DNA from: Candidatus Omnitrophota bacterium
GTDB lineage: Bacteria; Omnitrophota; Gorgyraeia; DTHP01
NCBI GenBank assembly: GCA_023819145.1
Contig: JAMWCW010000001.1
Coordinates: forward strand, 66,400 to 130,399
DNA length: 64,000 bases
Reading direction: 5' to 3'
The notes beneath the pieces were generated by a model. It saw nothing but the letters and a program-made list of their open reading frames with translations. It did no database searches and had not been told where the DNA came from. Made by a program: the position numbers and the translations under genes. Of this stretch, positions 13,552-64,000 are shown in pieces; within the stretch, counting starts at the first letter, position 1; every line of letters begins with the position of its first letter.

Positions 13552-13608
13552 ATTTTTTTGTAATATTTATATCTCCCTTTGGTTATAGATAATAGGGGGG
13601 CGAGAAAG

Positions 13609-14769: not shown

Positions 14770-14876
14770 TTTTTGTTTGTTTTCTTCTAAATAAAGGGGA
14801 CACTTACTACCGACTCTTCATTGGTTGTAAGAAAGTAAAAGATATTAAACTTGAATTCCGAGGAGGTATTATATAA

Positions 14877-23395: not shown

Positions 23396-26300
23396 ATGAA
23401 AAAGACAAGATTTTTACTAAACCGGGCCGGGGGAATTTTAATACTTTTCTTAATTTTGGCTTTTACAAAGCCGGGAGAGGGATTATTTTTTACTGGTGAT
23501 GACCCTACTCAATACCATATGAGTACTGGATGCGGGATGTATGGTAATGGTTGTAATGCTTTTGGGGATCAAGAACGGCAAACTCCAGGCTTACTGAGGC
23601 AAATGAGTTCGTCACCGGCGTCTATTCAATTTAAGGACGGAATTCCAGTGACAGGGGATTCAGTGAGGTGGTCTCTTTTCGATCTGGATAATGATGGTAA
23701 TGTTGATTGTTATATAGATGAAAGTGGAAATAGATATTTAAAAACTATAACCTCAGATGGCATAATAACAGGTTATATTTTAGCAAAAAATCTTGAAAAT
23801 GGAGATTTAGATGTTCAAGTATATGGATATACTCAAACTTCAGGTTATTTTCCTATAATTCCTATAGAACCACTTGATCACACAGAACAGAATACTCAGG
23901 TAGTTGAAACACAATACCGTTTAGTGGCACATTTTAAAGTAGACCAAGCCGCTGGGCTTAATTCTTTAATAAAAGCTATTTTAGATGATACTCGCCTGCA
24001 ATCATTCCTTCAAAAATTTGATCCCAATATGAATAGTATGCTTAATGTGGGTGGCCAACAACTGAAGTTAGTTGAAAGTTTTACATATAACGATACAGAC
24101 TCTGAATGGAATAAAAATGACCAGGAGGAAAAATATTACTCCTCTATAAATGGATATTTAAAAAGGGAGGTAATTTCTGGAAAGGAATATTATTATGTCT
24201 ATAATTCCGACTATACCTTAGCTGCGCGCTATACAAAAGATACTAGTGGTGATATCACAAGCTTGACATTTATTACTCCTTCTGGAGGAGCTTTTGAGCG
24301 AGGTAAGTTAATTAGTGGGACTGAATATGAATTATCCGGGGCTTCCTTGGGGTATCTGAAGGGCTTATCGGAACTCTCGCTAAATATAAATAATATAGGT
24401 TCTTTAATGGAAAAATCTGCAATAATAGCGGGAACCTCATGGCTTAAGTTAGGCGAAAACCACTATTTTCAGCTTAAAAAAGGAACAATTGAGCAGGTAG
24501 TAACTGTAACTGTAGCAGACGATGGAAAATCTTCTTCTTTAACTTTGCAAAGGCTCAAATTGGAAGATGATAAATTGGTAGTAGTAAATGGTCAGTCAAT
24601 AACTGTTTCCAACGCGCTTTTAACTGGCAAGTTGCCAAGCGGATACTTAGATTCCTCAATTACTTCCCCTAAAGTCTTAGACCTTATTTTAAAAGGAGCC
24701 TCCATAGATTACACTCATCAGAGAATTTATTTTGATTATACAGGAAAGACTTATGCTTATGATGTTACTGGAGAAGGCTTACAGTATTATTATGTTTATT
24801 ATATGGGCGGAGGAAATACATTACCATTATTACAAATTTATGGTCCTGATACTAATATAACAACTGAAAACCCTGATTTAACTTTAACTGTGCCACAAGA
24901 ATTAAAAATCACTAATTTTACTTTTAATGTTAAAGGAACTAGCGCTACATTATCTTTCCAAGCAGATGGTAAAGAATACACATATAACCTTCCTACTAGT
25001 AAAAATGGTTCTTTTACCTTGAGTATTGATCCCCAAGCCACTGGTGCAGGGGTAATTGCACCTACTATTAAAATACTACCACCCGCATTAAGCGAGGAGC
25101 AAAAAAGATGGATTGCTAGTATTTTGGGTCTAGAAGACGATCCGGGTGGTCGAACAGCCGTACAACAATTGGATAATTTATTGGGAGATTCCCAAAATTA
25201 TTTTGTAACTGGTAATTATTTTGGGATTCAATCAGGAGAGAGTATTTTTATATTTAATACTTCCTCACTAAGTGCAGGTAGTAGATATCTTAAATTTGAT
25301 GGTAAAAATCTAATAATTAATGAGGGTACTACAACTATAACTATAGGAGATTTCGCTAAAGTTTTAAAGAGTCTAGGATTCTCTGCTTGGCTGGATGCTT
25401 TTAAATCTATGGAGGAAGATTCTCTGAGGACCCTTTTTGGACTAAATCCGAGCAATTCAGCCAATTTCACACTTGCCTTTGAGAAGATTATTACTGAGGC
25501 GCAGAAAGAGTTTTATAATTTCTCGTTTGAGAAAGACACAAGTGGTAGTAATTATTCGCCTAGGGGATATGCTAAGGCTATGTTGGATAATTCCCGATCT
25601 GTTGTTGTTGTTGAGTTTTATATTAGTGATGGGGATAGTTTCACCAAAGTTTTAGGATTTGATAGACCTACATTACTGCAAATATTAGATAGATCAGAAA
25701 CCTTTGAAGGCTTGTATGAAAAAGCTAAGGGATTTGTCAGGAATATTAGTTATGTAAAAAGGTTAGATGGAACTTATGTTTGGGTATGTAGTATAGGTAA
25801 TAAGTTTGTTCAATTTTATTCTATTGGAGGAGGAAGTGAATGGTGGGCATTGGCTGTTGATGCTACTGGTGATGTTACTGTATATGATAGCGGATGGGAG
25901 ATAAAATATACAATTGCTAAAATAGAGTTAGAATCGTCACCATCACCAAGCGTTGATTTAGTAAAAAGCCTAATTTTTGATGAGCAAACATTGCATCTTC
26001 TTCGGTTAAGTATAGAGCAAAGAGGAGACGGTGGTGTAACAGGTGTAACAATCCAAAGAAACAAAATAGAAGTGTGGGAACTGAAAAAAGCTTCGGCGAA
26101 TAGTAATGCGTTAAAGAGGATAGAAAAATTTACTTTGCTTGGAGAGGAATCTGTGGTAGCAGGAAGGGCGACCCCACTTGATCCAGAGCCAGTTATTGAA
26201 TTCGGCAGTAGAAAAATAAAGGAAATCCAATTTACCAATTTTGCGGGGATGGTAACCTTCGCTCGAGGAATTAGTTTTAAGACTCAGGGTGATAAAAGTT

Positions 26301-29300
26301 ATCTGATTTTAGGAGGAAAAATTTATGAGCTTTCTTTAGCAGAAGATGGATCAATCTTTACAATTAGCCAAACTCCTATTATTACGATTGAGCAACAAAC
26401 TTGGGAAGCAATAAGAACACTTATTGCTTACGAGCGGACAAATACTGGAAGTGTAACTGGCCCGAGTGCAATTGGCTGGGCTGATATTAGTATAGTAATA
26501 GAAAAAGAGGACAAAGTGTACTTTGAGGTGCCAGTGAAATCAATTGATGAGGGAAGATATGTATTGAGATTTGATAGTAAGGGACAATTAATTAAGAGAG
26601 ATGGTGCAGTATTGAGTTTTACTCCCACAGATTCAGATGAATCCCAAAAAGCAGAAAGCTTTAAAACATTTTTGCAAAATAATGTAGGCAATCTTCCTTT
26701 ATCTGCAGCAGGCAAAGCCTATGAGAGATTTTGTTCACAGTTGGCAATTGCTGGTGTGGCTAAAGTAGATTGGGAGATATTTCTTCGTAGCTGGAATGAA
26801 GGGGCAAAAACTCTTGAAGGCTTTAGTGACCCCGGATGGGGTGGGGGACTTAGTAGGAGCGAACTTATCGCGGCATTGGAGCTTAGTGATGAGCAGAAAC
26901 AACAGCAGTTGCGTAGAATTGAGGCTACAGATATAAATGGGTTTAATAAATATCTTTATATTGATGACAAGGGAAATATAGTTTATGTAGAAGAACTACC
27001 TGATCCCTCGAAAGGAAAATATAAAGGATATTTATTAAGGTATCAGTGGAATGATTCTGCTAATCCTCCGGAAGCGAATATTTCTGGAGTATTGGTAGGA
27101 GCTATGCAGCGTTCAACTTCACAAAATGTTTTATCACAAAATGTTTTATATGGAATAGTAGCAGAGGTTGATAATGGTGGGGGTTATGTAAAATTGAATG
27201 ATAAAGGATTTGAATTAAATTTAAATATTATATTTAAAGGTAATAACAAGGGGTATGAGAATCTTTTTGATTTTGAAACATACAAAATCGAAATCAAGGT
27301 TAGTAGAGTGGATAATACATTGACGCAGGTAGAAACAACGAATTGGGCTAATTCTAATGCGCAAAGATGGTATACGAGCTCTACCATTACTACAGTAGTA
27401 GGGCTACTGGAGGATGGGAAATTTGAAAAAAAGCGAGAAGAAAGGGTATTAAAAAATAATGAGGGGGAGCAAGAAACAATCACTTTTCCTGAATTTGATG
27501 GAAAAGGCAACCCCACTAAAAAACAGGTGCATTCTTTGAGGAAAGTCGATATTGAGGGTTGGGAATGGAGAGAGGATAATTATACAGAGACAGGAACTCT
27601 TAACAGTAATCAACAATGGGTGAGGAAAGGTTATGAACCTAATACTCAAAGGACAATTAAGCTAAGTAGAGGAAATGGGGATTATCTACAGCAGGAGTAC
27701 TCTATAGATGGAAATGGAAAAGCAATCAGATGTGTTATTGAGGAAAAAAGAGGTTCGGTAACTGCCAAAGTAGAAGAAGAAGTAGTAGGTGAAGGGGATT
27801 TATTATTCTTAGGAGAGAATACACAACTTACCTTGAATATTAATGGAGATAGGATAGATCCCAAAACAGGACAAACGGTAAGTGTAAGTGGCAATAATGT
27901 AGTAAGGTCTGTTTATGTATTTAAGGACGAAGAGGTGGCAGCACTTAAACAGCAGGGCTTAACCATAAGGGCTGGTATTCCTTATATCCTTGATAAATAT
28001 GAAGATGGTTCGTTTAGAATATATACCGCATTTGTAGAACAAACATATCTTGATGCACAAGGAAAACCTAAAGCGTATTATGTGGCTGGAGAATATGTAG
28101 GAACCCTTGGTTCAAAAAAAGCCAGTGACGGTGCCAGTGGCGGAGGCGGTGGAGGAGGTGGAGGAGGTGGAGGAGGTGGACCGGCAGGAAGTGACAAAAT
28201 TCCTCCTTCACAAATAGCTAATCAGGATACAGGAGAGATTGTTGGTGGTATGGAAGGGCAATTAGATGGTTTTGTGAAAAGAAGCTATCCTGAGAGAGTA
28301 GAGGAATTAGCTCATACTTATCGGGCAATGGGTCCGGGAATGAAGGAGAGAGCACTTTCTATAAACGATAGAGATAGTGCCAGAATATATCTATTGGGGA
28401 GATTTCTTTCCAGAGATAAAATTAAACAAGTTCTTTCGGTTCTTAAAAATAAGAATCTTTCTATTGAGGAAAAACGCGCTTTACTTAAGAAACTGGGGCT
28501 TTCGGATAAATTGCTTGACTTACTCCTTAATGGTGATGAAGAAGCATTAATTAAAGAAGCTCAAAAAATGCTCCTTAAGGATTTCGGGCTTTCTGATGAG
28601 GAGATTGAAGAATTCTTCAAGAGCAGTGATAAAAAAGGATATTTGCAGAAGAAAGGACTTTCTGATGAACGCATTGAGGCGGTAATGGAGATAACAGATT
28701 TAGAGAAGGCTCAAGAGGCAATCCTTAATCAGGAGGCAGTTTTGGAAGAGTTGCTCAGTGAGGAAGAGAAAGCACTTATGGAGGAGCTTTTTGCTTTGTT
28801 AGAGGAATATACCGGATTTATTAGTGATGAAGAGTATGCGGAATTAAGGGAGATTTTGGTAGATTTGGGGCTTTCTGAGGAGACCATAGATGATTTAATA
28901 GGTAAAAATGCGGATGAGTTTATGAATAGTCAGTTGCGGAATTGGGCAATGATGGATGAGAAAAATATTCTTGAATTGGCAAGGATGCTTTTCTTTGATG
29001 AAGACTTAAAGTTAGATAAATGGACTGCGGAGTTTATTGTAAAAGGTGATGAGTTTATGGTAAATGAGCTCTTAAGTAAAATTAGACAAGCAGTAAAAGA
29101 GTATCTTGAAGAGTATTGGGGTAAAGAGGTCAGTGAAGAAGAAGTTAAAGGTTTGGATGAGGCGACTAGAGAGAAAATTGCCGATGCTTTACTGCAAGCG
29201 ATAGGTAGAGGAGGACTTACGCTGGAAAATGCTTCTAAAAAAGTAAAGGAAATTCTTGCAGAGATTATCCCTTTGAAGGAAGCGAAAGAGGAGAAGAGCC

Positions 29301-29443
29301 CTATTCAGCCAGCACCTTCTCCGGAACCGTTACAGCCACAATCTCTTGCTGCGGTAAGTATTCAGGGTAACTGGAGGAGCAAAAATAATGATGATGATAT
29401 TCCGCGGTTGTTAAGAGAAAAAAATGAACTCAGAAGCAGATAG
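23396..29443 (+). CDS. Giant secreted protein (2015 aa) with poly-Gly linker and C-terminal acidic helical GLSDEE-type repeats
   Basis: Signal-like N-terminus, DxDxDG-like FDLDNDGNVD, a run of 14 Gly, then repeated LGLSDExIEE / GLSEETIDDL motifs. RBS AAAGGAGGG. No catalytic motif recognised. Confidence 0.5.
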   Translation: MKKTRFLLNRAGGILILFLILAFTKPGEGLFFTGDDPTQYHMSTGCGMYGNGCNAFGDQERQTPGLLRQMSSSPASIQFKDGIPVTGDSVRWSLFDLDNDGNVDCYIDESGNRYLKTITSDGIITGYILAKNLENGDLDVQVYGYTQTSGYFPIIPIEPLDHTEQNTQVVETQYRLVAHFKVDQAAGLNSLIKAILDDTRLQSFLQKFDPNMNSMLNVGGQQLKLVESFTYNDTDSEWNKNDQEEKYYSSINGYLKREVISGKEYYYVYNSDYTLAARYTKDTSGDITSLTFITPSGGAFERGKLISGTEYELSGASLGYLKGLSELSLNINNIGSLMEKSAIIAGTSWLKLGENHYFQLKKGTIEQVVTVTVADDGKSSSLTLQRLKLEDDKLVVVNGQSITVSNALLTGKLPSGYLDSSITSPKVLDLILKGASIDYTHQRIYFDYTGKTYAYDVTGEGLQYYYVYYMGGGNTLPLLQIYGPDTNITTENPDLTLTVPQELKITNFTFNVKGTSATLSFQADGKEYTYNLPTSKNGSFTLSIDPQATGAGVIAPTIKILPPALSEEQKRWIASILGLEDDPGGRTAVQQLDNLLGDSQNYFVTGNYFGIQSGESIFIFNTSSLSAGSRYLKFDGKNLIINEGTTTITIGDFAKVLKSLGFSAWLDAFKSMEEDSLRTLFGLNPSNSANFTLAFEKIITEAQKEFYNFSFEKDTSGSNYSPRGYAKAMLDNSRSVVVVEFYISDGDSFTKVLGFDRPTLLQILDRSETFEGLYEKAKGFVRNISYVKRLDGTYVWVCSIGNKFVQFYSIGGGSEWWALAVDATGDVTVYDSGWEIKYTIAKIELESSPSPSVDLVKSLIFDEQTLHLLRLSIEQRGDGGVTGVTIQRNKIEVWELKKASANSNALKRIEKFTLLGEESVVAGRATPLDPEPVIEFGSRKIKEIQFTNFAGMVTFARGISFKTQGDKSYLILGGKIYELSLAEDGSIFTISQTPIITIEQQTWEAIRTLIAYERTNTGSVTGPSAIGWADISIVIEKEDKVYFEVPVKSIDEGRYVLRFDSKGQLIKRDGAVLSFTPTDSDESQKAESFKTFLQNNVGNLPLSAAGKAYERFCSQLAIAGVAKVDWEIFLRSWNEGAKTLEGFSDPGWGGGLSRSELIAALELSDEQKQQQLRRIEATDINGFNKYLYIDDKGNIVYVEELPDPSKGKYKGYLLRYQWNDSANPPEANISGVLVGAMQRSTSQNVLSQNVLYGIVAEVDNGGGYVKLNDKGFELNLNIIFKGNNKGYENLFDFETYKIEIKVSRVDNTLTQVETTNWANSNAQRWYTSSTITTVVGLLEDGKFEKKREERVLKNNEGEQETITFPEFDGKGNPTKKQVHSLRKVDIEGWEWREDNYTETGTLNSNQQWVRKGYEPNTQRTIKLSRGNGDYLQQEYSIDGNGKAIRCVIEEKRGSVTAKVEEEVVGEGDLLFLGENTQLTLNINGDRIDPKTGQTVSVSGNNVVRSVYVFKDEEVAALKQQGLTIRAGIPYILDKYEDGSFRIYTAFVEQTYLDAQGKPKAYYVAGEYVGTLGSKKASDGASGGGGGGGGGGGGGGPAGSDKIPPSQIANQDTGEIVGGMEGQLDGFVKRSYPERVEELAHTYRAMGPGMKERALSINDRDSARIYLLGRFLSRDKIKQVLSVLKNKNLSIEEKRALLKKLGLSDKLLDLLLNGDEEALIKEAQKMLLKDFGLSDEEIEEFFKSSDKKGYLQKKGLSDERIEAVMEITDLEKAQEAILNQEAVLEELLSEEEKALMEELFALLEEYTGFISDEEYAELREILVDLGLSEETIDDLIGKNADEFMNSQLRNWAMMDEKNILELARMLFFDEDLKLDKWTAEFIVKGDEFMVNELLSKIRQAVKEYLEEYWGKEVSEEEVKGLDEATREKIADALLQAIGRGGLTLENASKKVKEILAEIIPLKEAKEEKSPIQPAPSPEPLQPQSLAAVSIQGNWRSKNNDDDIPRLLREKNELRSR
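28138..28180 (+). repeat. (GGA/GGT)n simple sequence repeat encoding a poly-Gly tract
   Basis: ggcggaggcggtggaggaggtggaggaggtggaggaggtgga. Confidence 0.7.
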
Positions 29444-29622: not shown

Positions 29623-30276
29623 ATGAGAAAGAATTTTCTGGCAGTAGGAGAAATTTATCACGTGTTGAATAAAAGTATTGCGGGTTTTCAGATTTTTAAC
29701 GATGAAGATGAATATCAGCGAATGGCTGGGCTTTTTGCCTATTATCAAAAAGAGAATCCTCCAGTTAAGTTCTCTAAGTATTTAAATTCCAATAAAAAAG
29801 GTTCTGAGGGGGAGAATACAGGAAATAAATTAGTGGAAATTATCGCCTATTGTCTTATGCCTACCCATCTTCATCTCTTATTGAGACAGATGAAAGAAGA
29901 AGGGATTTCTCTTTTTATGGGAAATGTTTTAAATAGCTACACCCGCTATTTTAATACCCGACATAAGCGCAAAGGACCTCTCTGGGAGGGTAGATTTAAA
30001 AGAATTCAAGTAAAAACCGAGGAAAATTTATTGCACCTTACCCGCTATATCCATCTTAATCCGGTTACAGCGTATCTGGTGAACAAGCCCGAGGATTGGC
30101 TTTTTTCTTCTTATCGAGAGTATTTAGGTCAGGTTGATGGTAAGGAGAAAATTTGCAATTTTGAAGATTCTTTAGAGATAGGCCCTGACTATAAAGAATT
30201 TGTGGAAGATAGAATTTCTTACCAGAGAGAACTTGCTCAGATTAAAGATTTAATAGTTGAAAACCTCTCCACCTAA
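29623..30276 (+). CDS. REP-associated tyrosine transposase (RAYT; IS200/IS605-family Y1 HuH transposase)
   Basis: AYCLMPTHLHLLL (HuH motif), catalytic Tyr region NSYTRYFN, and GPLWEGRFKRI...YIHLNPV...WLFSSYREY fit the Y1_Tnp / RAYT fold. Flanked on both sides by REP doublets. Confidence 0.7.
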   Translation: MRKNFLAVGEIYHVLNKSIAGFQIFNDEDEYQRMAGLFAYYQKENPPVKFSKYLNSNKKGSEGENTGNKLVEIIAYCLMPTHLHLLLRQMKEEGISLFMGNVLNSYTRYFNTRHKRKGPLWEGRFKRIQVKTEENLLHLTRYIHLNPVTAYLVNKPEDWLFSSYREYLGQVDGKEKICNFEDSLEIGPDYKEFVEDRISYQRELAQIKDLIVENLST

Positions 30277-44882: not shown

Positions 44883-46358
44883 ATGTGGACAAAAGAGAGT
44901 TTAGAAGAGTTGATTAAGACGCGACTGGAAGATTATCTTTTGATTGTAGTTTCTAATCGTGAACCCTATGTGCATACTCTGAAAAAAGGAAAAGTTGTTT
45001 GTCAGAAAGGTGCCGGAGGAGTGATCACTGCTTTAGACCCCGTCATGCGGACATGTAAAGGAATCTGGATTGCCCAAGCCTCTGGTGAAGCCGATAGGAA
45101 AGTAGCCGATAGAGAAGGGAAAGTTAAAGTTCCTCCCGAAGAACCTTTGTATGAATTAAAAAGAGTCTGGTTAAGCAAGGAAGAAGATGAGGGATATTAT
45201 TATGGTTTTTCTAATGAAGCCCTCTGGCCCCTTTGCCATATGGCTTTTATCCGACCTATCTTTAGAGAATCAGATTGGGAGTATTACAAGAAAGTTAATG
45301 AGAAATTTGCCAAAGCAGTACTTGAAGAGACAAAGGGTAAAAAAGCATTTGTTTGGATTCAGGATTATCATCTGGCACTTTTACCTAAATATCTTAAAGA
45401 GGCGCAGTCTAACATTATTACAGCACACTTCTGGCATATCCCTTGGCCCGGTCCTGATGTTTTTAGAATTGCTCCTCACCGTCAGGAGATATTAGAGGGA
45501 CTGCTTGCCAATGACCTCCTCGGTTTCCATATTCGTTATAATTGCGATAATTTCTTGGGTTGTGTAGATAGAGAGCTGGAAGCAAAGATTGACCGTGAAA
45601 GATATTCGGTAATTAAAGGTGGACACGAAACCCTTATAAGACCTTATCCCATAAGCGTAGATTTTCTTGATATTGCCCGAAAAGCTGATTTCCAAGAAGT
45701 GCAGGAACTAATAGGACAACTGCGGGAAGAATTTTCACTTAATTATGAGTTTGTCTGTTTGGGACTTGATCGGATAGATTATACAAAAGGGATTCCTGAA
45801 AGATTACAAGCGGTGGGAAGATTTCTGGATAAATATCCCCAGTATCGGGAAAGGTTTGTCTTTATACAAATGGGAGAAATTTCCCGTTTGCATATTCCCC
45901 AATATAAGCTCCTGAATGATGAACTTAATGCTTTGGTAGAGAAGATAAACTGGAAATATGCTACTGAATATTGGTCACCTATCGTTTTAGTAAGAAGACA
46001 TTTAAGCTATCCGGAACTGCTCGCTTTTTATCGTTTAGGTAACCTCTGTATTGTTTCCTCCTTGCATGATGGGATGAATTTAGTTTCTAAGGAATTTGTA
46101 TCCGCAAGAGTTGATTTGGATGGGGTTTTACTCTTAAGTCAATTTACGGGAGCAGCCAGAGAACTTACAGATAGTATTTTAATCAATCCCTACGATACCG
46201 AAGAATTTGCCGATAAAATCTATCAAGCAGTTAATTTATCTCGGGAGGAGAGAGAAAAAAGAATGTTAAAGATGCGTAAAATTGTAGAGTTTAATAATAT
46301 CTATCGCTGGGCAGGGAAAGTGATTTCTGAACTTTTAAAATTTGAGTTTAAGGAATGA
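44883..46358 (+). CDS. otsA: Alpha,alpha-trehalose-phosphate synthase (GT20)
   Basis: FWHIPWPGPDVFRIAPHRQEILEGLLANDLLGFHIRYNCDNFL matches the OtsA FLHIPFP...GFHTYDY region. The C-terminal GT-B half is present. Confidence 0.7.
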   Translation: MWTKESLEELIKTRLEDYLLIVVSNREPYVHTLKKGKVVCQKGAGGVITALDPVMRTCKGIWIAQASGEADRKVADREGKVKVPPEEPLYELKRVWLSKEEDEGYYYGFSNEALWPLCHMAFIRPIFRESDWEYYKKVNEKFAKAVLEETKGKKAFVWIQDYHLALLPKYLKEAQSNIITAHFWHIPWPGPDVFRIAPHRQEILEGLLANDLLGFHIRYNCDNFLGCVDRELEAKIDRERYSVIKGGHETLIRPYPISVDFLDIARKADFQEVQELIGQLREEFSLNYEFVCLGLDRIDYTKGIPERLQAVGRFLDKYPQYRERFVFIQMGEISRLHIPQYKLLNDELNALVEKINWKYATEYWSPIVLVRRHLSYPELLAFYRLGNLCIVSSLHDGMNLVSKEFVSARVDLDGVLLLSQFTGAARELTDSILINPYDTEEFADKIYQAVNLSREEREKRMLKMRKIVEFNNIYRWAGKVISELLKFEFKE

Positions 46359-47131
46359 AACATTTGGTTAGACACTGGGAAGAGATAAGAGGGATAATAA
46401 AGGACAAAAAGGTTTTTATTTTTCTTGACTACGACGGCACGCTTGCTCCTATTGTAAATACTCCTCAAGAAGCAAAATTGTCTTTGGAAATCAGGGCATC
46501 GCTCCTTAAATTAGTTAAAAAATCCAATTTTAGTCTGGCGGTTATTAGCGGAAGAGAATTGAGGGAAATAAAACAGAGAGTGAATATAAAAGGAATAGTT
46601 TATGCCGGGAATCACGGATTAGAGATAGAAGGGAAGGGAGTAAATTTTAAAGGTTTGGTTTCAGATGATTACCGAAAACTCTTGAAAGAGATTAAGCGGC
46701 GTTTATTAAAAATATTTGCCTCTTTTAAAGGGGTAATAGTTGAAGATAAAGGATTGAGTATAAGTATCCATTATCGCCTTGCAGAGAAGAGTAGAATACC
46801 TTTAATAAAGAAAGAAATTGAGCGGGTTGTAAAGCGATTAAAGGCAAGAAGGAATGTAGAGTTAAAAGAAGGGAAGATGGTTAAAGAGATAATGCCAAAG
46901 GTTAAATGGGATAAAGGCAAGGCAGTTAAGTGGATTCTTGCTAATAAAAAGGGTAATTACTTTCCGATTTATATTGGCGATGATAAAACCGACGAAGATG
47001 CTTTTCGGGTAGTTAGAAAAAAGGGAATTTCTATTTATGTAGGAAAGCCCAAAAGGAGTTTTGCGGAGTATTTTCTATACGATACCCAAGAAGTAAATAA
47101 ATTTTTGAATAAACTTTTATGGTTGAACTAA
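46355..47131 (+). CDS. otsB: Trehalose-6-phosphate phosphatase (HAD family)
   Basis: FLDYDGTLAPIV (HAD motif I, typical of T6PP) and GDDKTDEDAF (motif IV). 4-nt overlap with otsA. Confidence 0.65.
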   Translation: MKHLVRHWEEIRGIIKDKKVFIFLDYDGTLAPIVNTPQEAKLSLEIRASLLKLVKKSNFSLAVISGRELREIKQRVNIKGIVYAGNHGLEIEGKGVNFKGLVSDDYRKLLKEIKRRLLKIFASFKGVIVEDKGLSISIHYRLAEKSRIPLIKKEIERVVKRLKARRNVELKEGKMVKEIMPKVKWDKGKAVKWILANKKGNYFPIYIGDDKTDEDAFRVVRKKGISIYVGKPKRSFAEYFLYDTQEVNKFLNKLLWLN

Positions 47132-47790
47132 CGAGAGCAAAAGAACCATTTAGATTCTATACACGTTTGCATCTGACGGAACTTACTGGTTTTAGGGCGG
47201 TGAACCTTTCACAATTATTAGAGTTGATTAAAGAAATCCCAGGTTCTGCTATCTATCATCATACCCATAGATTCCTGCAACAACATCTTTATCTCTCTCC
47301 CGAACCACCTAATGATTTTGCATACTGGGTGAGAGAATTTCTGGGAGAGGATGAATTAGGAGAAAAACTTGCGAGCATCGATACCTTAGAATTTTCTACC
47401 ATCCGTGCTTTAAGAGAGAAGATAATAGAAATGGTTGAAGTTTATCTTAAGGAGAAACCACGTGCAAGATTGAAGTTTGCTAATGAGGGAGAAGAATTTC
47501 ATTTTGTTAAATCCGTAAGTTTCATCCTCCCTACTCCTTACATTGCCTATGACCTTAAAGAATTTGTAGAAATTATAAAGAAAATTACTATAGATTCCAT
47601 ATACTTTCATATTTTTGAAGCACGTTTACGTCTGGAGAAGGGCAGAAACGATTTTTCTTACTGGATAGAGACCTCGTTGGGAGATAGAGAATTAGCTGAA
47701 GAGATTTCTCAATTTGATCCTTATACAAGGACTCTTGAAGAATTAAGAAAAACTCTCATAAGGATAATTGAAAAGAGAATTAAAATTTAG
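47119..47790 (+). CDS. Hypothetical protein
   Basis: ORF overlapping otsB by 13 nt; no motif recognised. Confidence 0.35.
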   Translation: MVELTRAKEPFRFYTRLHLTELTGFRAVNLSQLLELIKEIPGSAIYHHTHRFLQQHLYLSPEPPNDFAYWVREFLGEDELGEKLASIDTLEFSTIRALREKIIEMVEVYLKEKPRARLKFANEGEEFHFVKSVSFILPTPYIAYDLKEFVEIIKKITIDSIYFHIFEARLRLEKGRNDFSYWIETSLGDRELAEEISQFDPYTRTLEELRKTLIRIIEKRIKI

Positions 47791-47807
47791 AGTTTAGTAT
47801 TTTATAA

Positions 47808-49025
47808 ATGGCAATGGAAAAATTAGAAGCATATATTCCTATTGTGGGAGAATCGGTAATCAATGACCTGCGTCTTCTTGCCAAAAGTCTTAAAGGGAGA
47901 GTTATCCAGAACATAAATTCTACTGCTGTTGGAGGAGGAGTAGCAGAAATTTTAACGCGGATGGTACCTCTTTTGAAGGAGCTCGGCATAGATGCACGAT
48001 GGGATTTAATAAAAGGAGGAGAAGATTTTTTTACCGTAACCAAGAAATTTCACAATGTCTTGCATGGAAGAAAAGAAGAGGTTACCGACAGAGATTTTGA
48101 GATTTTCCTTAAGACAAGTGAAGAAAACATTAAAGAGGTTAATATTGATGGAGACATTATCTTTATTCACGACCCTCAGCCAATTGCCTTGGTAGAGAAG
48201 AAAGGAAATAATAAGTGGCTTTGGCGTTGTCATATTGATGTCTCGCGCCCTGACCTTAAAGTCTGGGATTTTTTAAAAAGATATATTGTAAATTATGACG
48301 CCTGTATTTTTTCTGCTCCTGCTTTTTCCCAGCCTTTGCCTATACGACAATTTCTCATTGCACCCTCTATTGATCCTTTAAGCGATAAAAATAAGGATTT
48401 GCCTCAAGAAATAATTGATTCGGTTCTGAGAAAATATAACATTCCTCAGGATAAGCCGATAATTACCCAGATTTCTCGTTTCGACCGTTTAAAAGACCCT
48501 TTGGGAGTTATTGAGGCATATAGACTGGTTAAAAAATATAATGAGTGTAGACTTATTTTAGCCGGAGGTTTGGCTACCGATGATCCGGAAGGATTGAAAG
48601 TTTATGATGAGCTAAAAGAAAAAGCAGGCAAAGACCCATGTATCCATATTTTGCTTTTGCCTCATTCGGATATCACGGTGAACGCTCTACAAAGGGCTTC
48701 TGACATAATTATTCAAAAATCTCTCCGGGAAGGATTTGGTTTAACAGTAGCCGAGGCGCTTTGGAAAGCAAAGCCAACAGTTGCTTCAGCGGTAGGAGGT
48801 ATTCCTTTACAGATTAAACATAAATATTCTGGTCTTTTGTGCCATTCTGTAGAAGGTGCAGCTTTTGCTCTGAAACAACTATTGAATAGTCCTGATTATG
48901 CAAAGAAACTGGGAGAAAATGGGAAGGAGCATATAAGACAGAATTTTCTTTTGACTCGTCATCTACGCGACTATATGTTGCTTTTTCTTTCGCTTTATCA
49001 TCAGGAAGACATCGTTTATCTTTAA
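47808..49025 (+). CDS. GT4-family glycosyltransferase (possibly a trehalose or other compatible-solute synthase)
   Basis: C-terminal EGFGLTVAEALWKAKPTVASAVGGIP is the GT4/GT-B E-x7-E region. Confidence 0.55.
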   Translation: MAMEKLEAYIPIVGESVINDLRLLAKSLKGRVIQNINSTAVGGGVAEILTRMVPLLKELGIDARWDLIKGGEDFFTVTKKFHNVLHGRKEEVTDRDFEIFLKTSEENIKEVNIDGDIIFIHDPQPIALVEKKGNNKWLWRCHIDVSRPDLKVWDFLKRYIVNYDACIFSAPAFSQPLPIRQFLIAPSIDPLSDKNKDLPQEIIDSVLRKYNIPQDKPIITQISRFDRLKDPLGVIEAYRLVKKYNECRLILAGGLATDDPEGLKVYDELKEKAGKDPCIHILLLPHSDITVNALQRASDIIIQKSLREGFGLTVAEALWKAKPTVASAVGGIPLQIKHKYSGLLCHSVEGAAFALKQLLNSPDYAKKLGENGKEHIRQNFLLTRHLRDYMLLFLSLYHQEDIVYL

Positions 49026-57434: not shown

Positions 57435-57854
57435 ATGGAAAGCAAAGATAATGGTTTAATTGAAATGGAACTTTTTAGAATCCAGATAGATGAAAATAGA
57501 GGAGAACAGGTGATTGTTCTCAAGGAAAAAAATGGCACACGCACTATGCCCATTGTTATTGGCATTGTGGAAGCTACAGCCATAAAGATGAAAATCGGTG
57601 GTTTTTCGCCTCCTCGTCCTTTGACGCACGATTTACTTAATAATACTATTAAGGAACTGGATGCCCATTTAGAACGGATTGTGGTAGAAAAACTTGAGGA
57701 TAATATTTTTTATGCTAAGCTTGTAATCCGAGATTATGTGGGTAATTTTAGAGAAGTTGATGCCCGTCCATCCGACTCTATTGCTTTAGCCCTCCGTGCC
57801 AATGCTCCTATCTTTGTACGCAACGAAGTTTTAGAAAAATTGAAGCTTACATGA
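57435..57854 (+). CDS. Bifunctional nuclease family protein (BFN/DUF151)
   Basis: MPIVIGIVEATAI...PRPLTHDL...VDARPSDSIALALRANAPIFV matches the BFN domain. Confidence 0.55.
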   Translation: MESKDNGLIEMELFRIQIDENRGEQVIVLKEKNGTRTMPIVIGIVEATAIKMKIGGFSPPRPLTHDLLNNTIKELDAHLERIVVEKLEDNIFYAKLVIRDYVGNFREVDARPSDSIALALRANAPIFVRNEVLEKLKLT

Positions 57855-58897
57855 ACACCTTTGAATTTCAAGCTACAGGTATTGGGAGTTTAGGACACGT
57901 TAATTACCAGGAAGCGGTTTCTTTTGTATTAGACCTTTTTCCCGAAATTCCTTTTTGGGTTCAGCTTCCCCAGCGCTGTTTCCGAGAGAATATGTATGTT
58001 CAATTTAGTGAAGGTATTCCTGGTATTGTAGTTAAGGAAGAAGAGAGGAAGGTCTATGTTGATACACGGAAAATAACTGAAGAGGACTTGTCCAATATCT
58101 ACGAGCATTATCTTGGAGGCAAGAATGATTTTTTTGGGATAAGCAAAGAATACGCGGAGGGATTTTATGAGTTTATTGAACAGCTAAGAGCAAAAAAGAT
58201 TTCTTGCTCTTTCCTAAAAGGTCAGATTATCGGACCGATTAGTTTTATGCTTACGGTCACCGACGATTCTAAAAAACCGCTTATCTATCAGGAACAAATT
58301 GCAGACTCAATTCTTAAAATTCTTACAATGAAAGCCAGATGGCAAGTAAGAAGATTAAAAGAGATTGCTCAAAGGGTAATTATTTTCGTTGATGAGCCGT
58401 ATTTAGTTTCTCTCGGTTCAGGTTATGTGAATTTAGACTTTCGGGATGTTTTGAAGAATCTTGATGAAATGATTGAGGGTATTCGGCAGGAAAATGCCTT
58501 GGTGGGGATTCACTGCTGTGGGAATACCGATTGGGGATTGTTAACTCAGACAAAAACTGATATCATAAGTTTCGATGCTTATAATTTTAGCGAATCAATT
58601 TTAGTGTATTCTGAAGCGATAAATATTTTTATGAAACGAGGGGGGGTAATTGCTTGGGGAATAGTTCCTACGGACTCTGACGTGGAAAAACTCAGCTCTA
58701 AGGAGTTATTTAAGAAATTTATGGAAACAGTAGAAATACTTGTTTCCAAGGGATTAAATAGAGAGTTGATTTATAAGCAGTCAATAATTACTCCCGGCTG
58801 TGGTTTAGGAAGCTTTTCCTCAGAGAAAGGAGAGGTTGTTCTCCGCGCTACTTGTGAATTATCTCGTAAGTTAAGAAAAGAATTGTTTTTCAGGTAG
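57851..58897 (+). CDS. UroD/MetE-superfamily protein (cobalamin-independent methionine synthase-like or methyltransferase-like)
   Basis: IIFVDEPYLVS and GIHCCGNTDW resemble the MetE C-terminal barrel and Zn site. Weak assignment. Confidence 0.35.
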   Translation: MNTFEFQATGIGSLGHVNYQEAVSFVLDLFPEIPFWVQLPQRCFRENMYVQFSEGIPGIVVKEEERKVYVDTRKITEEDLSNIYEHYLGGKNDFFGISKEYAEGFYEFIEQLRAKKISCSFLKGQIIGPISFMLTVTDDSKKPLIYQEQIADSILKILTMKARWQVRRLKEIAQRVIIFVDEPYLVSLGSGYVNLDFRDVLKNLDEMIEGIRQENALVGIHCCGNTDWGLLTQTKTDIISFDAYNFSESILVYSEAINIFMKRGGVIAWGIVPTDSDVEKLSSKELFKKFMETVEILVSKGLNRELIYKQSIITPGCGLGSFSSEKGEVVLRATCELSRKLRKELFFR

Positions 58898-58899
58898 TT

Positions 58900-60069
58900 A
58901 TGAAATTTAATAAGCCTCTTACGCGCAGAAACTTCATAAAAAAAACCTGCCTCTTTTGCTTAAGTTTGGGGTTTTCCGGTCTCATAAAGTCTCTCCTCAA
59001 AGAAAAATTTGTCTTTGGAGATATCCTGCTTCGTCAGGGAATGCGGGAGGCAATGTTTTATGATGTTATAGATACGGAGACGGTGCAGTGTCATTTATGT
59101 CCACGTAATTGCACATTGACAAACGGTCAGCGCAGTTTCTGTCGTGTAAGGGAACCCGAGAAGGGTAAACTTTATAGTTTAGTTTATGGGCTTGCTTGTG
59201 CGGTGCATGTTGACCCGATAGAGAAAAAACCCATATTTCATATGCTTCCCGGAACGAGTTCCTTTTCTATAGCTACGGTAGGTTGCAATCTCCGTTGTAA
59301 GTTCTGTCAGAACTGGACAATTTCGCAGGTTAAGCCAGAGGAAGTTGACTACCTATATTTACCGCCACTGGAGGTTATTAAAATGGCTGAGGAAAAAAAA
59401 TGTGCATCCATTGCCTATACTTATACAGAACCAACTATCTTCTATGAGTATATGCTTGATACCGCAAAACTCGCTAAAGAAAAAAATATAAAAAATATTT
59501 ATGTCACCGCTGGCTATATTAATCCCCAGCCCGCAAGACTTTTAGCTAAATATATTGATGCGGCAAACATTGACCTTAAGGCATATGATGATGAGTATCT
59601 CCAAAATATCTGTGCCCAGAGACTCGAGCCTCTTCTTGAAGCAATAAAGTTGTTTAAGGATTTAGGAGGCTGGGTAGAGATTACTAACTTAATTCTTCCC
59701 ACATTGAATGACAAAATGGAAAAAATTCGCCAAATGTGCTACTGGATAAAGAAGAATTTAGGTGCGGATACCCCTATACATTTTTCAAGATTTTCTCCAA
59801 TGTATAAGATGGTTCATTTACCTTCTACACCAGTTTCTACCTTGGAGGAGGCAAGAAGGGTAGCCATGGAGGTTGGGCTTAACTATGTTTATATCGGAAA
59901 TGCTCCCGGACATCCCGGAGAACATACCTACTGTCCGGGATGTAAAAAAATACTTATCGAAAGAAAAGGATTTTTTCTAACCCAATATAATTTAAATAAA
60001 AATAGATGTAAATATTGCAAGTGCGAGATTGCCGGAATCTGGCCTGAAAAATATTCTTTAGTTGATTAG
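58900..60069 (+). CDS. Radical SAM enzyme of the PFL-activase-like AmmeMemoRadiSam type with N-terminal twin-arginine (Tat) signal
   Basis: CNLRCKFCQNW (CxxxCxxC); N-terminal CHLCPRNC...FCRVRE cluster; HVDPIEKKPIFHMLPG; Tat motif TRRNFIKK followed by a hydrophobic stretch. Confidence 0.55.
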   Translation: MKFNKPLTRRNFIKKTCLFCLSLGFSGLIKSLLKEKFVFGDILLRQGMREAMFYDVIDTETVQCHLCPRNCTLTNGQRSFCRVREPEKGKLYSLVYGLACAVHVDPIEKKPIFHMLPGTSSFSIATVGCNLRCKFCQNWTISQVKPEEVDYLYLPPLEVIKMAEEKKCASIAYTYTEPTIFYEYMLDTAKLAKEKNIKNIYVTAGYINPQPARLLAKYIDAANIDLKAYDDEYLQNICAQRLEPLLEAIKLFKDLGGWVEITNLILPTLNDKMEKIRQMCYWIKKNLGADTPIHFSRFSPMYKMVHLPSTPVSTLEEARRVAMEVGLNYVYIGNAPGHPGEHTYCPGCKKILIERKGFFLTQYNLNKNRCKYCKCEIAGIWPEKYSLVD

Positions 60070-60161: not shown

Positions 60162-61886
60162 ATGATGAATAAGAAAAAATTATGTATCACAATTGTATTT
60201 TTAACTTTATTCTTATCAGCTGGAGATATCTGTTTTGCCCGTCGAATACCCTCATATTTTAGTCTTTCGCAAATTCTTAACGCGGCGTATGTTCGAGGAT
60301 ATCTTACCCCAGAAGAGATAACTGCCCTGTATCGAAGATCTTCCGGAAAGGCAGATTTAACAGATATGCAAGGTGAGGTCAAACTTGCCATCTTACTTGA
60401 TGGGAGGTCTCTTCCTGTCAGGGTTTATGGCGGATATATCGATGTGGGACAAGACAGATTCGTTATTCAGATTAAAGGGGAAGAAGAAACAGGTTTATAT
60501 AATGAAATTATTTTCCAAGAAGGAAATGCAGGAAAACCTTTTGTTATAAATCTAAGGACCGGCGGGACCATCAGCATGGAAGAGAAAGACGAAAAAAGAG
60601 GAACAGCAAGAGATGGGCTTAAATCAGAATTACCATATATCCAGGTTGGTTCTACGAGGTGGGATTCCAGCCAGATTGGCGGAGAAGAACTGCTTACCTT
60701 AGTAAATTGTGTTTCACGGGTATTGGATTTAGGTATGGTTCCTTTGATTACGCATGGGACTGATACGATGGAGATCACCGCATTTATTCTCAGTCTTTTG
60801 TTTCCTAATAGATTTATGGTTATGACCGGTGCTTTTGATGCTGCCAACACTCCCGGAGGAGACGCTCCTATTAATTTTAGGTCTTCCCAGCAATTAGCCG
60901 AAAGTGGTAATGTTCCAGCACATCTCTATGTAGTGATGAACAATAAAATTCATTTGGGCTCACGGCTGGTGAAAGTAGGGACGTCTAAAGAATATGGATT
61001 TTTAAGTTATGGTGGCCATATTGGAGAAATAGATGAAAACGGTGTGATTCGGTTTAATAACTCTTTTCTGGTTGAAGAAAAGAGTTTTTCCTCCACTATA
61101 CTTGACCCCACAAAATACGGAATTTCTGATACGGTGTTATTTTATAGTAACGCTTACTTACCACTTATTGCTATCAAGACACTAACCACACAATTAATCA
61201 CCAAAAAGGAATCTGGTGGAAGACCGGGTTTAGTTATAGAAGGAAGTCTCCCCCCAGGAAGCGAACCTTTCTTGGATATGCTTTTTCAGAGAGGTATTCC
61301 CGTATTTGTAGAGGATGTTAATCAGGAAATTACAGGCGTTTTTAAAATCCCCGATTGGCTTAGTCCTTTGCAGGCTTGGGCAAAACTCAGTTTATTGCTC
61401 AATCAATTTGAGAACGAGGTGATACCAGATTTAATGCTTTTAGATATAGCTGGAGAAAAGGTTTATCACGATTATCTGTGGATAAAAAAGGCAGAAGAAG
61501 TGTCTCGACCTTACAGTGAAAGGATTCCTCGTCAGAAAATCAGCGGAAATTTCTATTCTAATGCAGGGAGAGCAGTGAGTTTTGTTTTGACCTTTCCTGG
61601 CTCAATGTCAAAAGCAGTTTTGAAATCAGAGATAGATAGACTTTTGGCAACACCTGCCCAAGAAAAGATTCTTGTAATTGAAGGCGCAGGAAATGGTAAT
61701 GTTGACTTGCAGTTAAACGATTTGCTAAGCTTTGCGCTGAATAAAGGTATTAAAGTTGTAGTAATTGCCCGTCCAGTTACAGGCAGAGCAGATCTAAGCT
61801 ATGATGTAGCACTTAAATTAGATTCCCGCTGTATACATGCGGATGGTTTGGGTAGGGACTATTTGTTGAGCTTACTTGAGCCATAG
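60162..61886 (+). CDS. Secreted L-asparaginase-family protein (574 aa) with hydrophobic plus FARRIPS leader
   Basis: RTGGTISME (TGGTIA Thr motif), LITHGTDTMEITAF (hGTDTm), ILVIEGAGNGN near the C-terminus. Confidence 0.5.
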   Translation: MMNKKKLCITIVFLTLFLSAGDICFARRIPSYFSLSQILNAAYVRGYLTPEEITALYRRSSGKADLTDMQGEVKLAILLDGRSLPVRVYGGYIDVGQDRFVIQIKGEEETGLYNEIIFQEGNAGKPFVINLRTGGTISMEEKDEKRGTARDGLKSELPYIQVGSTRWDSSQIGGEELLTLVNCVSRVLDLGMVPLITHGTDTMEITAFILSLLFPNRFMVMTGAFDAANTPGGDAPINFRSSQQLAESGNVPAHLYVVMNNKIHLGSRLVKVGTSKEYGFLSYGGHIGEIDENGVIRFNNSFLVEEKSFSSTILDPTKYGISDTVLFYSNAYLPLIAIKTLTTQLITKKESGGRPGLVIEGSLPPGSEPFLDMLFQRGIPVFVEDVNQEITGVFKIPDWLSPLQAWAKLSLLLNQFENEVIPDLMLLDIAGEKVYHDYLWIKKAEEVSRPYSERIPRQKISGNFYSNAGRAVSFVLTFPGSMSKAVLKSEIDRLLATPAQEKILVIEGAGNGNVDLQLNDLLSFALNKGIKVVVIARPVTGRADLSYDVALKLDSRCIHADGLGRDYLLSLLEP

Positions 61887-62010
61887 GGAATTAAAATCCT
61901 TCTAATTACTTTTTCATTGCTTATTATCCCACGGAGTGAACCTCTGATTCTTTTCTAGATTTTAGATAAATTTGTACGGAATTAGTAGAGAACTATTAAA
62001 TTTAATTTCC

Positions 62011-62039
62011 TTGACAAGCAGTCAGATAAGTTCTAAAAT
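62011..62039 (+). promoter_or_regulatory. Sigma70-like promoter TTGACA-N17-TAAAAT
   Basis: ccttgacaagcagtcagataagttctaaaat. Confidence 0.4.
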
Positions 62040-62051
62040 ATTCCCCAATTA

Positions 62052-62069
62052 TTGTGAAAAAAATCACAA
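62052..62069. promoter_or_regulatory. CRP/FNR-family (HcpR-type) binding palindrome TTGTGA-N6-TCACAA
   Basis: ttgtgaaaaaaatcacaa is a perfect 18-bp palindrome ~10 nt upstream of the asrA-like start codon and just downstream of the predicted -10. Confidence 0.55.
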
Positions 62070-62078
62070 ATTTATAAA

Positions 62079-63134
62079 ATGCCTCTATACTATTTCCCCA
62101 GAGCCAAGTGTTTAGAATTCTTATCTCTTTTAGAGAAAGAATATGAGCTTTATCTCCCTTCGGTAATAGAAGGTAAAGGTATATCTTGCGAATTCGGTTA
62201 CAATTTACCGATAACCGATTTCACACTGGTGAAATACTCATCTTCTAAAGAATCCGATTTATTCTTTAATTCTTATCGAACCGTAGAGCCTTTAAAAACA
62301 TTTTTTACTTTTCCTAAAGAAAAACTTGTTTCTAAGAAAGAAAAATTTGCCATTTTGGGAGTTAAAAATTGCGATTTATTCTCTTTAAAAATTCAGGATT
62401 ATGTTTTTTTAGAAGGAATAGTTTCTGACCCTTTCTACCGAGCGAGGAGAGAAAACTCTTTAATTATCTCTGGAGATTGCACTGCTTTTAAAGAAGTATG
62501 TTTCTGTTTGTCTTTGGAAATAAATCCCTATCCTGGGGATGGTTTTGATATAAACCTCTCTCCTTTAGAAGACGGTTTTTTGGTAGAGGCGGGTTCTTTA
62601 AAAGGTGAAGAGATAATTAAGAAAGGTAAAGGCATTTTTTCCTTAGCGCAAAATGAACAGATTGCCAAACGGATTGAAAACAGAGAGGCTTTTAAGAAGA
62701 GTTTGGATAAACATATTCAATTCCATAATATTCCTAAAAAAGAGGTTCTGCAAAAAATAGTCAAAGATGGATTTAGTTCTTCTTTATGGCAGGAAGAAGC
62801 TCTCCGTTGTGTAGAATGTGGAGGATGTAATTTATCTTGTCCCACTTGTCACTGTTTTTTACTGGCTGAAGATAGATTTGGTAATGCGCACGAAAAGGTG
62901 CGCCTCTGGGATGCCTGTCTTTATGCCAATTTTGCTAGGGTAGCAGGGGGAGCTAACCCTTTGCGTTATCGTTATCAACGTTTGCGTAATCGCTATTTGA
63001 AAAAATTTGATTTTTTCCCGGAGAATATTTCTTTGTTTGCCTGTTCTGGCTGTGGAAGGTGTATTGAGGTTTGTCCGGCAAAGATTGACATCAGGAAAAA
63101 TCTAAAAGAATTAAGTGTAAGGTGTAAAGTATAA
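62079..63134 (+). CDS. 4Fe-4S cluster protein, AsrA (anaerobic sulfite reductase subunit A) / sulfhydrogenase beta-like
   Basis: CVECGGCNLSCPTCHC and CSGCGRCIEVCP are ferredoxin-type Cys motifs. ~350-aa size and an FNR-like partner gene immediately downstream. Confidence 0.5.
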   Translation: MPLYYFPRAKCLEFLSLLEKEYELYLPSVIEGKGISCEFGYNLPITDFTLVKYSSSKESDLFFNSYRTVEPLKTFFTFPKEKLVSKKEKFAILGVKNCDLFSLKIQDYVFLEGIVSDPFYRARRENSLIISGDCTAFKEVCFCLSLEINPYPGDGFDINLSPLEDGFLVEAGSLKGEEIIKKGKGIFSLAQNEQIAKRIENREAFKKSLDKHIQFHNIPKKEVLQKIVKDGFSSSLWQEEALRCVECGGCNLSCPTCHCFLLAEDRFGNAHEKVRLWDACLYANFARVAGGANPLRYRYQRLRNRYLKKFDFFPENISLFACSGCGRCIEVCPAKIDIRKNLKELSVRCKV

Positions 63135-63202: not shown

Positions 63203-64000
63203 GATGGATAATCCTTATCAACCTCTAAAAGCAACTTTAGAAACGATAATCACGGAAACGCCGAATATTAAAACTTTTGTGATGAAACCGGAAAAAGATT
63301 TTTCTTTTAAAACAGGGCAGTTTATTGAAGTTTCTTTTCCTGGTTTTGGAGAGGGACCTTTTACTCCCTCCTCTGACCCAGAGGTTAAGAATAGATTAGA
63401 AGTAACAATTATGAATGTCGGGAGACTTACTTCTAAACTCCATAGCCTTAGTGGGGGAGAGGTATTGGGGATACGTGGACCATATGGCAAAGGTTATCCT
63501 TTGGATAAATTTGTGGATAAGGACGTTTTAATAGTTGGTGGAGGAGTGGGACTTGCTCCTTTACGCTCTCTGCTTTTTGCCCTTTTTTCTGATATTAAGA
63601 GGTATAATAAAGTCATCTTGCGTTACGGAGCCCGTTCTCCCCAAGATATTGTTTATAAAAATTCTCTTCCCGAATGGGGCAAAAGAGAAAAAGTAGATGT
63701 TTTGGTTACTGTAGATGTCGGAGATAATAGTTGGAAAGGGAATGTGGGTTTGGTCACTTCTATCCTCAAAGATTTGCCTTTGGAGATAAGTAGGGCGGTA
63801 GCGGTTGTTTGTGGGCCACCGATAATGATGAAGTTTGTTACCTTGAAATTAGTGGATTTGGGTTTTGGTGCTCAGGATATCTATCTTTCAATGGAAAAGA
63901 ATATGTCCTGTGGTTTGGGAAAATGTGGGCATTGTCGACTGGGAAAATACTATGTCTGTCGCGATGGTCCGGTGTTTACCTATCAAGAGATGAAGGATAT
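63203..64000 (+). CDS. FAD/NAD(P)-binding oxidoreductase with C-terminal 2Fe-2S motif, AsrB / HydG / PyrK-like (3' partial at window end)
   Basis: FKTGQFIEVSFPG (FAD-binding), VGGGVGLAPLRSLL (NAD-binding GxGxxP), C-terminal CGLGKCGHCRLGKYYVC. Translated by eye; not in the ORF track because it runs off the window. Confidence 0.5.

Follow-up and report, generated by a model that had tools for sequence, protein, structure and literature searches.

To determine which protein recognizes a perfect inverted repeat in front of an Fe-S/flavin oxidoreductase gene pair, and which operon these genes begin, we analyzed the 64-kb stretch of DNA that carries the repeat (hereafter the window) together with 82 distinct orthologous loci, 1.25 Mb of sequence in all. 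The repeat, TTGTGAAAAAAATCACAA, occupies positions 62052-62069 and is the sole perfect TTGTGA-N6-TCACAA in the window. The first-pass annotation had taken it for a CRP/FNR-superfamily (HcpR/Dnr-type) site controlling an AsrAB-like operon. We consider it instead, with a probability of roughly 85%, to be the operator of Rex, which would serve as the NADH-sensing repressor of a group-4 [NiFe] hydrogenase operon with an NAD(P) module; Rex binding, the response to NADH, a rex gene in the source genome and the transcription start are the parts of this reading that we infer. The features of the locus are as follows.

61932..61956, + strand: weak terminator-like hairpin with a T-rich tail; 5-bp stem with 3 G-C pairs, CGGAGTGAACCTCTG then ATTCTTTTCT
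62011..62016, + strand: -35 hexamer TTGACA, perfect; 11/12 consensus positions together with the -10 hexamer
62034..62039, + strand: -10 hexamer TAAAAT, separated from the -35 hexamer by a 17-nt spacer
62051..62070, no strand assigned: candidate Rex operator (Rex box), aTTGTGAAAAAAATCACAAa, with the core 18-mer at 62052-62069
62079..63134, + strand: first operon gene, 351-aa Fe-S subunit (Fer4_22), similar to sulfhydrogenase beta (ShyB/HydB) and to AsrA but under all family cut-offs
63204..64000, + strand: second gene, truncated at the window end; FAD/NAD(P)-binding and 2Fe-2S subunit similar to AsrB and to sulfhydrogenase gamma (HydG/ShyC)

The position and uniqueness of the palindrome were assessed within the window. 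Base composition predicts about 0.007 perfect copies per window. When up to two mismatches were allowed, 4 palindrome matches were found against 2.9 expected; the three extra matches all lie within coding regions and were counted as chance. A weight matrix built from the orthologous sites gave the window site 24.9 bits and the runner-up window position 2.4 bits. Neither the mismatch search nor the weight-matrix scan found further Rex sites in the window, including upstream of its glycolytic genes.

Conservation of the repeat was then examined across the comparison set. All 29 perfect TTGTGA-N6-TCACAA sites in the 1.25 Mb lie 0-43 nt upstream of the orthologous first gene, and all seven one-mismatch sites lie either before the orthologous gene or at an adjacent rex promoter. 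The exact position given in the annotation is confirmed. It is directly established that the site is conserved in orthologous upstream regions and that it is tied exclusively to this operon and to rex promoters. In a relative whose protein is 76% identical, TTGACA-N17-TAAAAT and the identical 18-mer stand just before the ATG, and the upstream gene there encodes an ABC-transporter ATPase, whereas the window has an asparaginase-like gene. An upstream alignment of eight relatives (55-76% protein identity) contains invariant columns only in CTTGACA and in the box.

These data bear directly on the suggestion that the palindrome is a chance or non-functional product of an A/T-rich intergenic region. 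A/T-rich spacers do yield many short inverted repeats, and the window offers no second site with which to define a regulon. Against this, the perfect motif appeared in none of 100 dinucleotide-preserving shuffles of the window, and the box is kept at the orthologous position in 29 species-level genomes despite differing upstream genes. The conservation data refute the chance reading, to which we attach almost no weight.

The 27 distinct orthologous sites define the consensus tTTGTGA-W-wwww-T-TCACAAa, in which the half-sites are invariant and the A/T-rich spacer varies (AAAAAA, TAATTT, TATTTT, AAAAAT, TAGGTT and others). The box is confined to part of the comparison set: in 46 of the 82 orthologous operons the 400 nt upstream contain no Rex-type box, and a search of these 46 loci found neither a divergent Rex-type palindrome nor any other common one. 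Control by this site is therefore lineage-patchy, which fits the taxon-specific Rex control of hydrogenases described elsewhere (PMC6391272). Four further loci (L038 at 9945, L067, L022 and L006) have spacers of 4 or 5 nt in place of 6, as in TTGTGA-TTTT-TCACAA and TTGTGA-TCAGC-TCACAA. Such variants are unexpected and awkward for the operator of a dimeric repressor, and they may be decayed sites.

The placement of the box relative to the promoter was next considered. TTGACA-N17-TAAAAT is, by consensus (11/12), the best promoter-like match of the region. The -10 hexamer proposed in the first-pass annotation, TAAAAT at 62034-62039, is confirmed and is partnered by the perfect TTGACA at 62011-62016. 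Transcription is predicted to start at about 62046, approximately 7 nt past the -10 hexamer. The box begins 12 nt after the -10 hexamer, covers about +6 to +24 of the predicted transcript with its centre near +14.5, and ends 9 nt before the ATG at 62079; it does lie between the -10 hexamer and the start codon, as had been claimed. Relative to the predicted promoter, this is repressor geometry, in which a site overlaps the promoter or lies downstream of it. The position of the box downstream of the promoter and before the start codon implies negative control, in support of the annotation's view that the site acts negatively.

The same arrangement recurs among the relatives. Thirty-five loci have either the box or a version of it with a different spacer length, and in almost all of them it is preceded by a TTGACA-like -35 hexamer and a TAnnAT -10 hexamer (8-12 of 12 positions). 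In these 35 loci the box starts 0-58 nt after the predicted -10 hexamer, with two modes: one at about 12 nt, found in the window's clade (centre near +14.5), and one at about 30-33 nt (centre near +32 to +35). In the window's clade, 0-18 nt separate the box from the start codon. No box was found at an activator position (about -41.5 or -61.5) among the loci examined; the box always lies downstream of the conserved predicted promoter. The class II activation site that the annotation had offered as an alternative is incompatible with this layout, since it would need a -10 hexamer about 20 nt downstream of the box, where in the window's clade the ATG is only 0-18 nt away. An alternative promoter at 62052-62080, with the left half of the box as its -35 hexamer, was also rejected because transcription would begin inside the ORF.

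The asparaginase-like gene upstream of the box ends with a stop codon at 61886, and the hairpin at 61932..61956 is tentatively taken, by consensus match only, to mark the end of the preceding transcription unit. This gene encodes 574 aa, with its domain starting at residue 131. Central-carbon enzymes with long Pfam-less extensions cluster in the window at 2271-16064 and 60162-61886. The window encodes a PGK of 504 aa (domain from residue 95), a GAPDH of 813 aa (domain from residue 414), a class-II aldolase-like protein of 717 aa (domain 487-617 plus HHH_3), a PFK of 512 aa and an aminotransferase of 741 aa (domain from residue 399). Two giant ORFs, 19002-23138 (1378 aa) and 23396-29443 (2015 aa), are Pfam-less at E <= 1e-5 and lie in a region of strongly positive AT skew. 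At 57851-60069 the window carries a radical SAM enzyme of the AmmeMemoRadiSam system (TIGR04337, 377 bits); the 348-aa ORF in front of it gives at best a faint match of methionine-synthase type, and the neighbourhood of the radical SAM gene yielded no AmmeMemo partner genes. A trehalose cluster at 44883-49025 comprises OtsA (GT20), OtsB (trehalose phosphatase), DUF5752 and a TreT-type trehalose synthase, in agreement with the trehalose synthesis reported for Omnitrophota MAGs (PMC8542988).

The start of the first operon gene had been called into question in the annotation, which noted no obvious Shine-Dalgarno sequence. The missing Shine-Dalgarno sequence is genuine: neither the first nor the second operon gene has one, and AGGAGG-type sites precede many other genes of the window. 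The doubt over the start codon itself is unfounded. An in-frame stop precedes ATG 62079 with no other possible start in between, and the 351-aa ORF contains no second Met codon, so that an alternative start was rejected both within the ORF and by upstream extension, which is impossible. Met1 is kept in at least 90% of 38 homologs, and its conservation, together with the lack of any other possible start, identifies ATG 62079 as correct. The 351-aa protein is 100% identical to a Candidatus Omnitrophica MAG protein.

To assign the site to a regulator, its sequence was compared with known operators. The CRP/HcpR-type family has the consensus TGTGA-N6-TCACA. Rex is a winged-helix, Rossmann-fold NADH sensor and not a CRP, FNR, HcpR or Dnr protein. 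The symmetry of the TGTGA-N6-TCACA core is common to the Omnitrophota box and to CRP/HcpR-type sites, and the motif alone cannot separate Rex from CRP/HcpR-type half-sites. PMC6391272 and PMC5317091, quoting Ravcheev et al. (2012), give the published Rex operator as an 18-20 bp palindrome, TTGTGAANNNNTTCACAA; the Rex site of S. aureus is TTGTGAAW4TTCACAA (PMC2883068). The window site TTGTGAAAAAAATCACAA fits the Rex consensus TTGTGAANNNNTTCACAA at 13 of 14 specified positions, the lone deviation being an A, not a T, before TCACAA. Rex operators are known from Firmicutes, Thermotogae and Actinobacteria, the operator of T. maritima TM0201 being one example (PMC8836258). Like these, the Omnitrophota box is an inverted repeat of 18-20 bp, TTGTGAA-N4-TTCACAA, whose centre is rich in A/T, and is situated at or downstream of a promoter. 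It differs from them in that position 7 is more often T than A and in its two preferred distances from the -10 hexamer, about 12 nt and about 30-33 nt.

The loci were further searched by tblastn and phmmer with Rex, CRP and FNR queries, phmmer being run over 2,798 ORF segments from the 82 loci. The queries were the Rex proteins of B. subtilis and T. aquaticus and, from E. coli, CRP and FNR; Pfam independently confirmed the Rex matches. In seven loci (L011, L014, L018, L037, L061, L082 and L084) a Rex homolog on the same strand immediately precedes the operon, and in L020 a Rex homolog lies 5 kb upstream of it; this adjacency of rex in relatives is a direct observation. Seven of these Rex genes were the ones recovered by phmmer from the 2,798 ORF segments (L011, L014, L018, L037, L061, L082 and L020), with that of L084 as an eighth. 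All four representative Rex ORFs submitted to Pfam contain PF06971 and PF02629 above gathering scores, and the L084 protein has the same pair. The Rex proteins keep the R-[K/R]-D recognition helix, the Gly-rich wing and the GxGxxG motif, elements that contact DNA, through Arg48 and Lys49, in the T. maritima Rex-operator structure (PMC8836258). This conservation of Rex architecture and DNA-contact residues, the presence of a box at the rex promoter, and hydrogenase or NADH-reoxidising targets are further points in which the Omnitrophota system resembles those of known Rex operators.

At the rex promoters of L011, L014, L018, L061 and L082 there are near-consensus boxes, either overlapping the promoter or next to it. 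In L011, L014 and L018, TTGTGAAAYAATTAACAA overlaps the -10 hexamer of rex; in L061 rex heads the operon, with TTGTGAAAAATAGCACAA in front of it; and in L082 the rex promoter is flanked by two boxes. The order in L084/L085 is nadA, rex, a perfect box in a 40-nt gap, and then the operon. Separate contigs of the MAG GCA_030692045.1 carry the box-bearing operon (L049) and rex (L086), and two overlapping near-boxes, TTGTGATTATTTTCACTG and CTGTGAGAGATTTCACAA, occupy the 56-nt rex-rnfC gap at L086 10625-10680 (contig JAUYCX010000035.1). These near-boxes precede a cluster of rnfC-D-G-E-A and an NqrF-like gene, an arrangement suggesting that Rex in Omnitrophota has Rnf as a second target. The two loci of this MAG indicate a Rex regulon of at least two operons and show that rex need not adjoin the box-bearing operon. 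The window resembles L049, in that its box-bearing operon has no neighbouring rex; tblastn, phmmer and Pfam searches found no rex gene in the 64-kb window. Rex is widespread in Omnitrophota, and both an autoregulation box and several operons sharing a box occur in relatives.

The assignment to Rex follows from the extended consensus, the neighbouring rex genes and the autoregulatory boxes, and the same evidence speaks against the CRP/FNR-superfamily (HcpR/Dnr-type) site of the first-pass annotation. On a reading of this kind, nitrosative, sulfite or cAMP-like signals would act through a cNMP-domain regulator of HcpR or CRP type that represses or activates the operon. Formal identity of the core with CRP/HcpR-type half-sites is compatible with such a regulator without being diagnostic of it. 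A CRP/FNR gene could also lie elsewhere in the source genome, of which 64 kb were inspected; in the window, tblastn and phmmer with the E. coli CRP and FNR queries found none. A first search of all loci gave no CRP/FNR match, and the more sensitive phmmer run over the 2,798 ORF segments of the 82 loci gave one weak cNMP-domain match, at the far end of the box-less locus L017, as against the seven Rex genes in the same loci and the eighth in L084. Boxes also occur at rex promoters; the T before TTGTGA, the T before TCACAA and the A/T-rich spacer fit Rex; and the box is found at a repressor position and never at the activator positions of -41.5 or -61.5. Flanks, spacer and gene neighbourhood all favour Rex, and we regard a CRP/FNR-type regulator as unlikely. 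Of the signals that had been suggested, redox control stands; nothing points to nitrosative or sulfite control, and the NADH/NAD+ ratio is indicated in their place.

A different possibility is that the palindrome functions as RNA, with a hairpin in the 5' leader (UUGUGA-loop-UCACAA) acting on translation or mRNA stability, either instead of a DNA operator or besides one. In every locus the predicted transcript would include the box, which in the window's clade stops 0-18 nt short of a start codon lacking a Shine-Dalgarno sequence, and a hairpin loop would accommodate the variants with 4-5 nt spacers. In a set of loci that we term group B (L011, L014, L018, L057, L058, L034, L024, L066 and others), a T-rich run, TTTTTTATTTTTT, followed by GGG, lies between promoter and box, about 10-25 nt upstream of the box, and a C-rich run (CCCCCC, CCCACC or CCCGCC) lies 1-15 nt downstream of it. 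In single-sequence folds of many group B loci, GGG pairs with CCC, so that these runs can lengthen the stem. The consensus fold does not support this pairing, and an extended GGG/CCC stem was rejected, as was a known RNA family or structured leader, Rfam giving no match above chance. The RNAalifold consensus is confined to the 7-bp core and has a covariation term of -0.06: the core pairs hardly vary, the six half-site pairs are without compensatory change, and only the outermost flanking pair shows one. The core hairpin is also weak, at -4.2 kcal/mol in the window. At the rex promoters, half-site mismatches break the pairing, and some boxes overlap the -10 hexamer and are hence partly untranscribed. 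An invariant stem sequence indicates sequence-specific recognition, and an RNA element is, in our estimation, improbable.

Having placed the site among Rex operators, we examined what it would control. The second gene encodes FAD_binding_6, NAD_binding_1 and DHODB_Fe-S_bind domains, and its product is probably an NAD(P)H-interacting module. In domain architecture, the two window genes equal those of AsrABC and of the beta and gamma subunits of Pyrococcus sulfhydrogenase (HydB/HydG, ShyB/ShyC). They differ from both in that they stay under every equivalog cut-off (127.8 against 323 for AsrA and 226.7 against 288.6 for AsrB) and in that relatives carry neither AsrC nor group-3b catalytic subunits downstream. 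The operon had been annotated as AsrAB-like, with an AsrC/siroheme or hydrogenase catalytic subunit expected to follow. Its interpretation as AsrABC fails on the sub-threshold scores of both proteins and on the lack of AsrC downstream in relatives; the hydrogenase part of the expectation is borne out in relatives.

Gene order was compared in L001-L003 (the relative at 76% identity) and in 80 further Omnitrophota loci. It reads AsrA-like, AsrB-like, ferredoxin, NuoH-like, NuoB-like small subunit, NuoC-like and [NiFe] large subunit, followed sometimes by PhoU and then by MrpD-like, MbhD/E, MnhB and NuoK-like modules. Synteny is strict wherever a locus extends far enough downstream. Both nickel-ligand motifs, RICGICSTSH and DPCYCCTER (N-terminal CxxC and C-terminal DPCxxC), are intact in the L001 large subunit, and the features of a group 4 membrane-bound [NiFe] hydrogenase of Mbh/Mrp type are present in relatives. 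This gene order and the nickel-ligand motifs of L001 show that the operon is not AsrABC. The nature of the operon is directly established in these terms: by the strict synteny of relatives, it is predicted to encode a Mrp-linked group-4 membrane-bound [NiFe] hydrogenase with an NAD(P)-binding module at its head. Because the window ends within the second gene, the hydrogenase identity in the source genome rests on synteny.

Foreign genes occur within the hydrogenase operon of relatives. In L001, an ORF of the 23S_rRNA_IVP family (14415-14762) is located between the NuoC-like and large-subunit genes, and in L084 an IS200-like Y1 transposase (16379-17272) follows the large subunit. An IS200-like Y1 transposase is also encoded in the window, at 29623-30276.

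Hydrogenases of this general kind have been described in the phylum. A group 4g Mrp-linked [NiFe] hydrogenase is reported for Omnitrophota MAGs (Ca. Saelkia and Ca. Gorgyraea), with no mention of Rex (PMC8542988). The operon studied here resembles group 4g in that paper: in relatives, its membrane-bound NiFe large subunit retains the Cys ligands, Mrp antiporter-like modules are encoded alongside, and the phylum is the same. According to the same source, ferredoxin drives other Mbh enzymes, and the hydrogenases of Omnitrophota are inferred to act in redox balancing; its seven mentions of "sulfhydrogenase" all concern group 3b, none being tied to group 4g clusters (PMC8542988). A full-text literature search found no paper linking Omnitrophota, hydrogenase and Rex.

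Rex control of hydrogenases is known from other phyla. In Caldicellulosiruptor bescii, Rex represses the ech (NiFe) and hyd (FeFe) hydrogenase operons as well as its own gene, and such control is taxon-specific (PMC6391272). The closest parallel in kind is Caldithrix abyssi, for which a rex-[FeFe] hydrogenase operon has been predicted, with a candidate Rex site upstream of rex (PMC5317091). Both cases are genome-based predictions in a poorly studied phylum, with rex linked to an NADH-dependent hydrogenase operon and a near-consensus box (PMC5317091). They differ in that the C. abyssi enzyme is an electron-bifurcating FeFe hydrogenase with rex as the first gene, whereas that of the window would be of the membrane-bound NiFe type and rex is not adjacent. 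The Omnitrophota target, a Mrp-linked group-4 hydrogenase headed by an AsrAB/HydBG-like module, likewise sets this predicted site apart from known Rex operators.

These observations fit a simple regulatory circuit. Dimeric Rex would repress a strong sigma-70-type promoter from the box at about +6 to +24 of the predicted start. When NADH rises, NADH-bound Rex would leave the DNA and the hydrogenase operon would be transcribed, and the derepressed circuit could then rid the cell of surplus reducing equivalents in the form of H2. NADH control would find its physiological logic in the AsrB-like, NAD(P)-binding subunit. A further, tentative possibility is that the AsrA/AsrB-like pair forms a dedicated NAD(P)H-input module of the Mrp-linked group-4 [NiFe] hydrogenase, in which case the complex would oxidize NAD(P)H and form H2, or run in the opposite direction, in a reaction coupled to ion translocation. 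The two-module synteny, seen in about 80 Omnitrophota genomes, and the NADH-sensing regulator are both compatible with this reading, which we consider less likely than not.

Taken together, the locus most likely represents a known control circuit, here in the little-studied Omnitrophota; since the mechanism is textbook Rex biology, its general significance is modest. The finding corrects two tempting mis-annotations, "CRP/FNR site" and "AsrAB sulfite reductase", and indicates that the Rex operator consensus extends essentially unchanged to Omnitrophota. It also proposes a specific, testable regulator and signal, Rex and the NADH/NAD+ ratio, for the main hydrogenase operon of an uncultivated phylum, which should be useful for metabolic models of Omnitrophota. 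NADH regulation would be indirect evidence that the hydrogenase, with its AsrAB/HydBG-like module, serves to dispose of excess NADH-derived reductant. If the NAD(P)H-input reading is true, Rex control would provide regulatory evidence that NADH, and not only ferredoxin, is the physiological partner of this enzyme.
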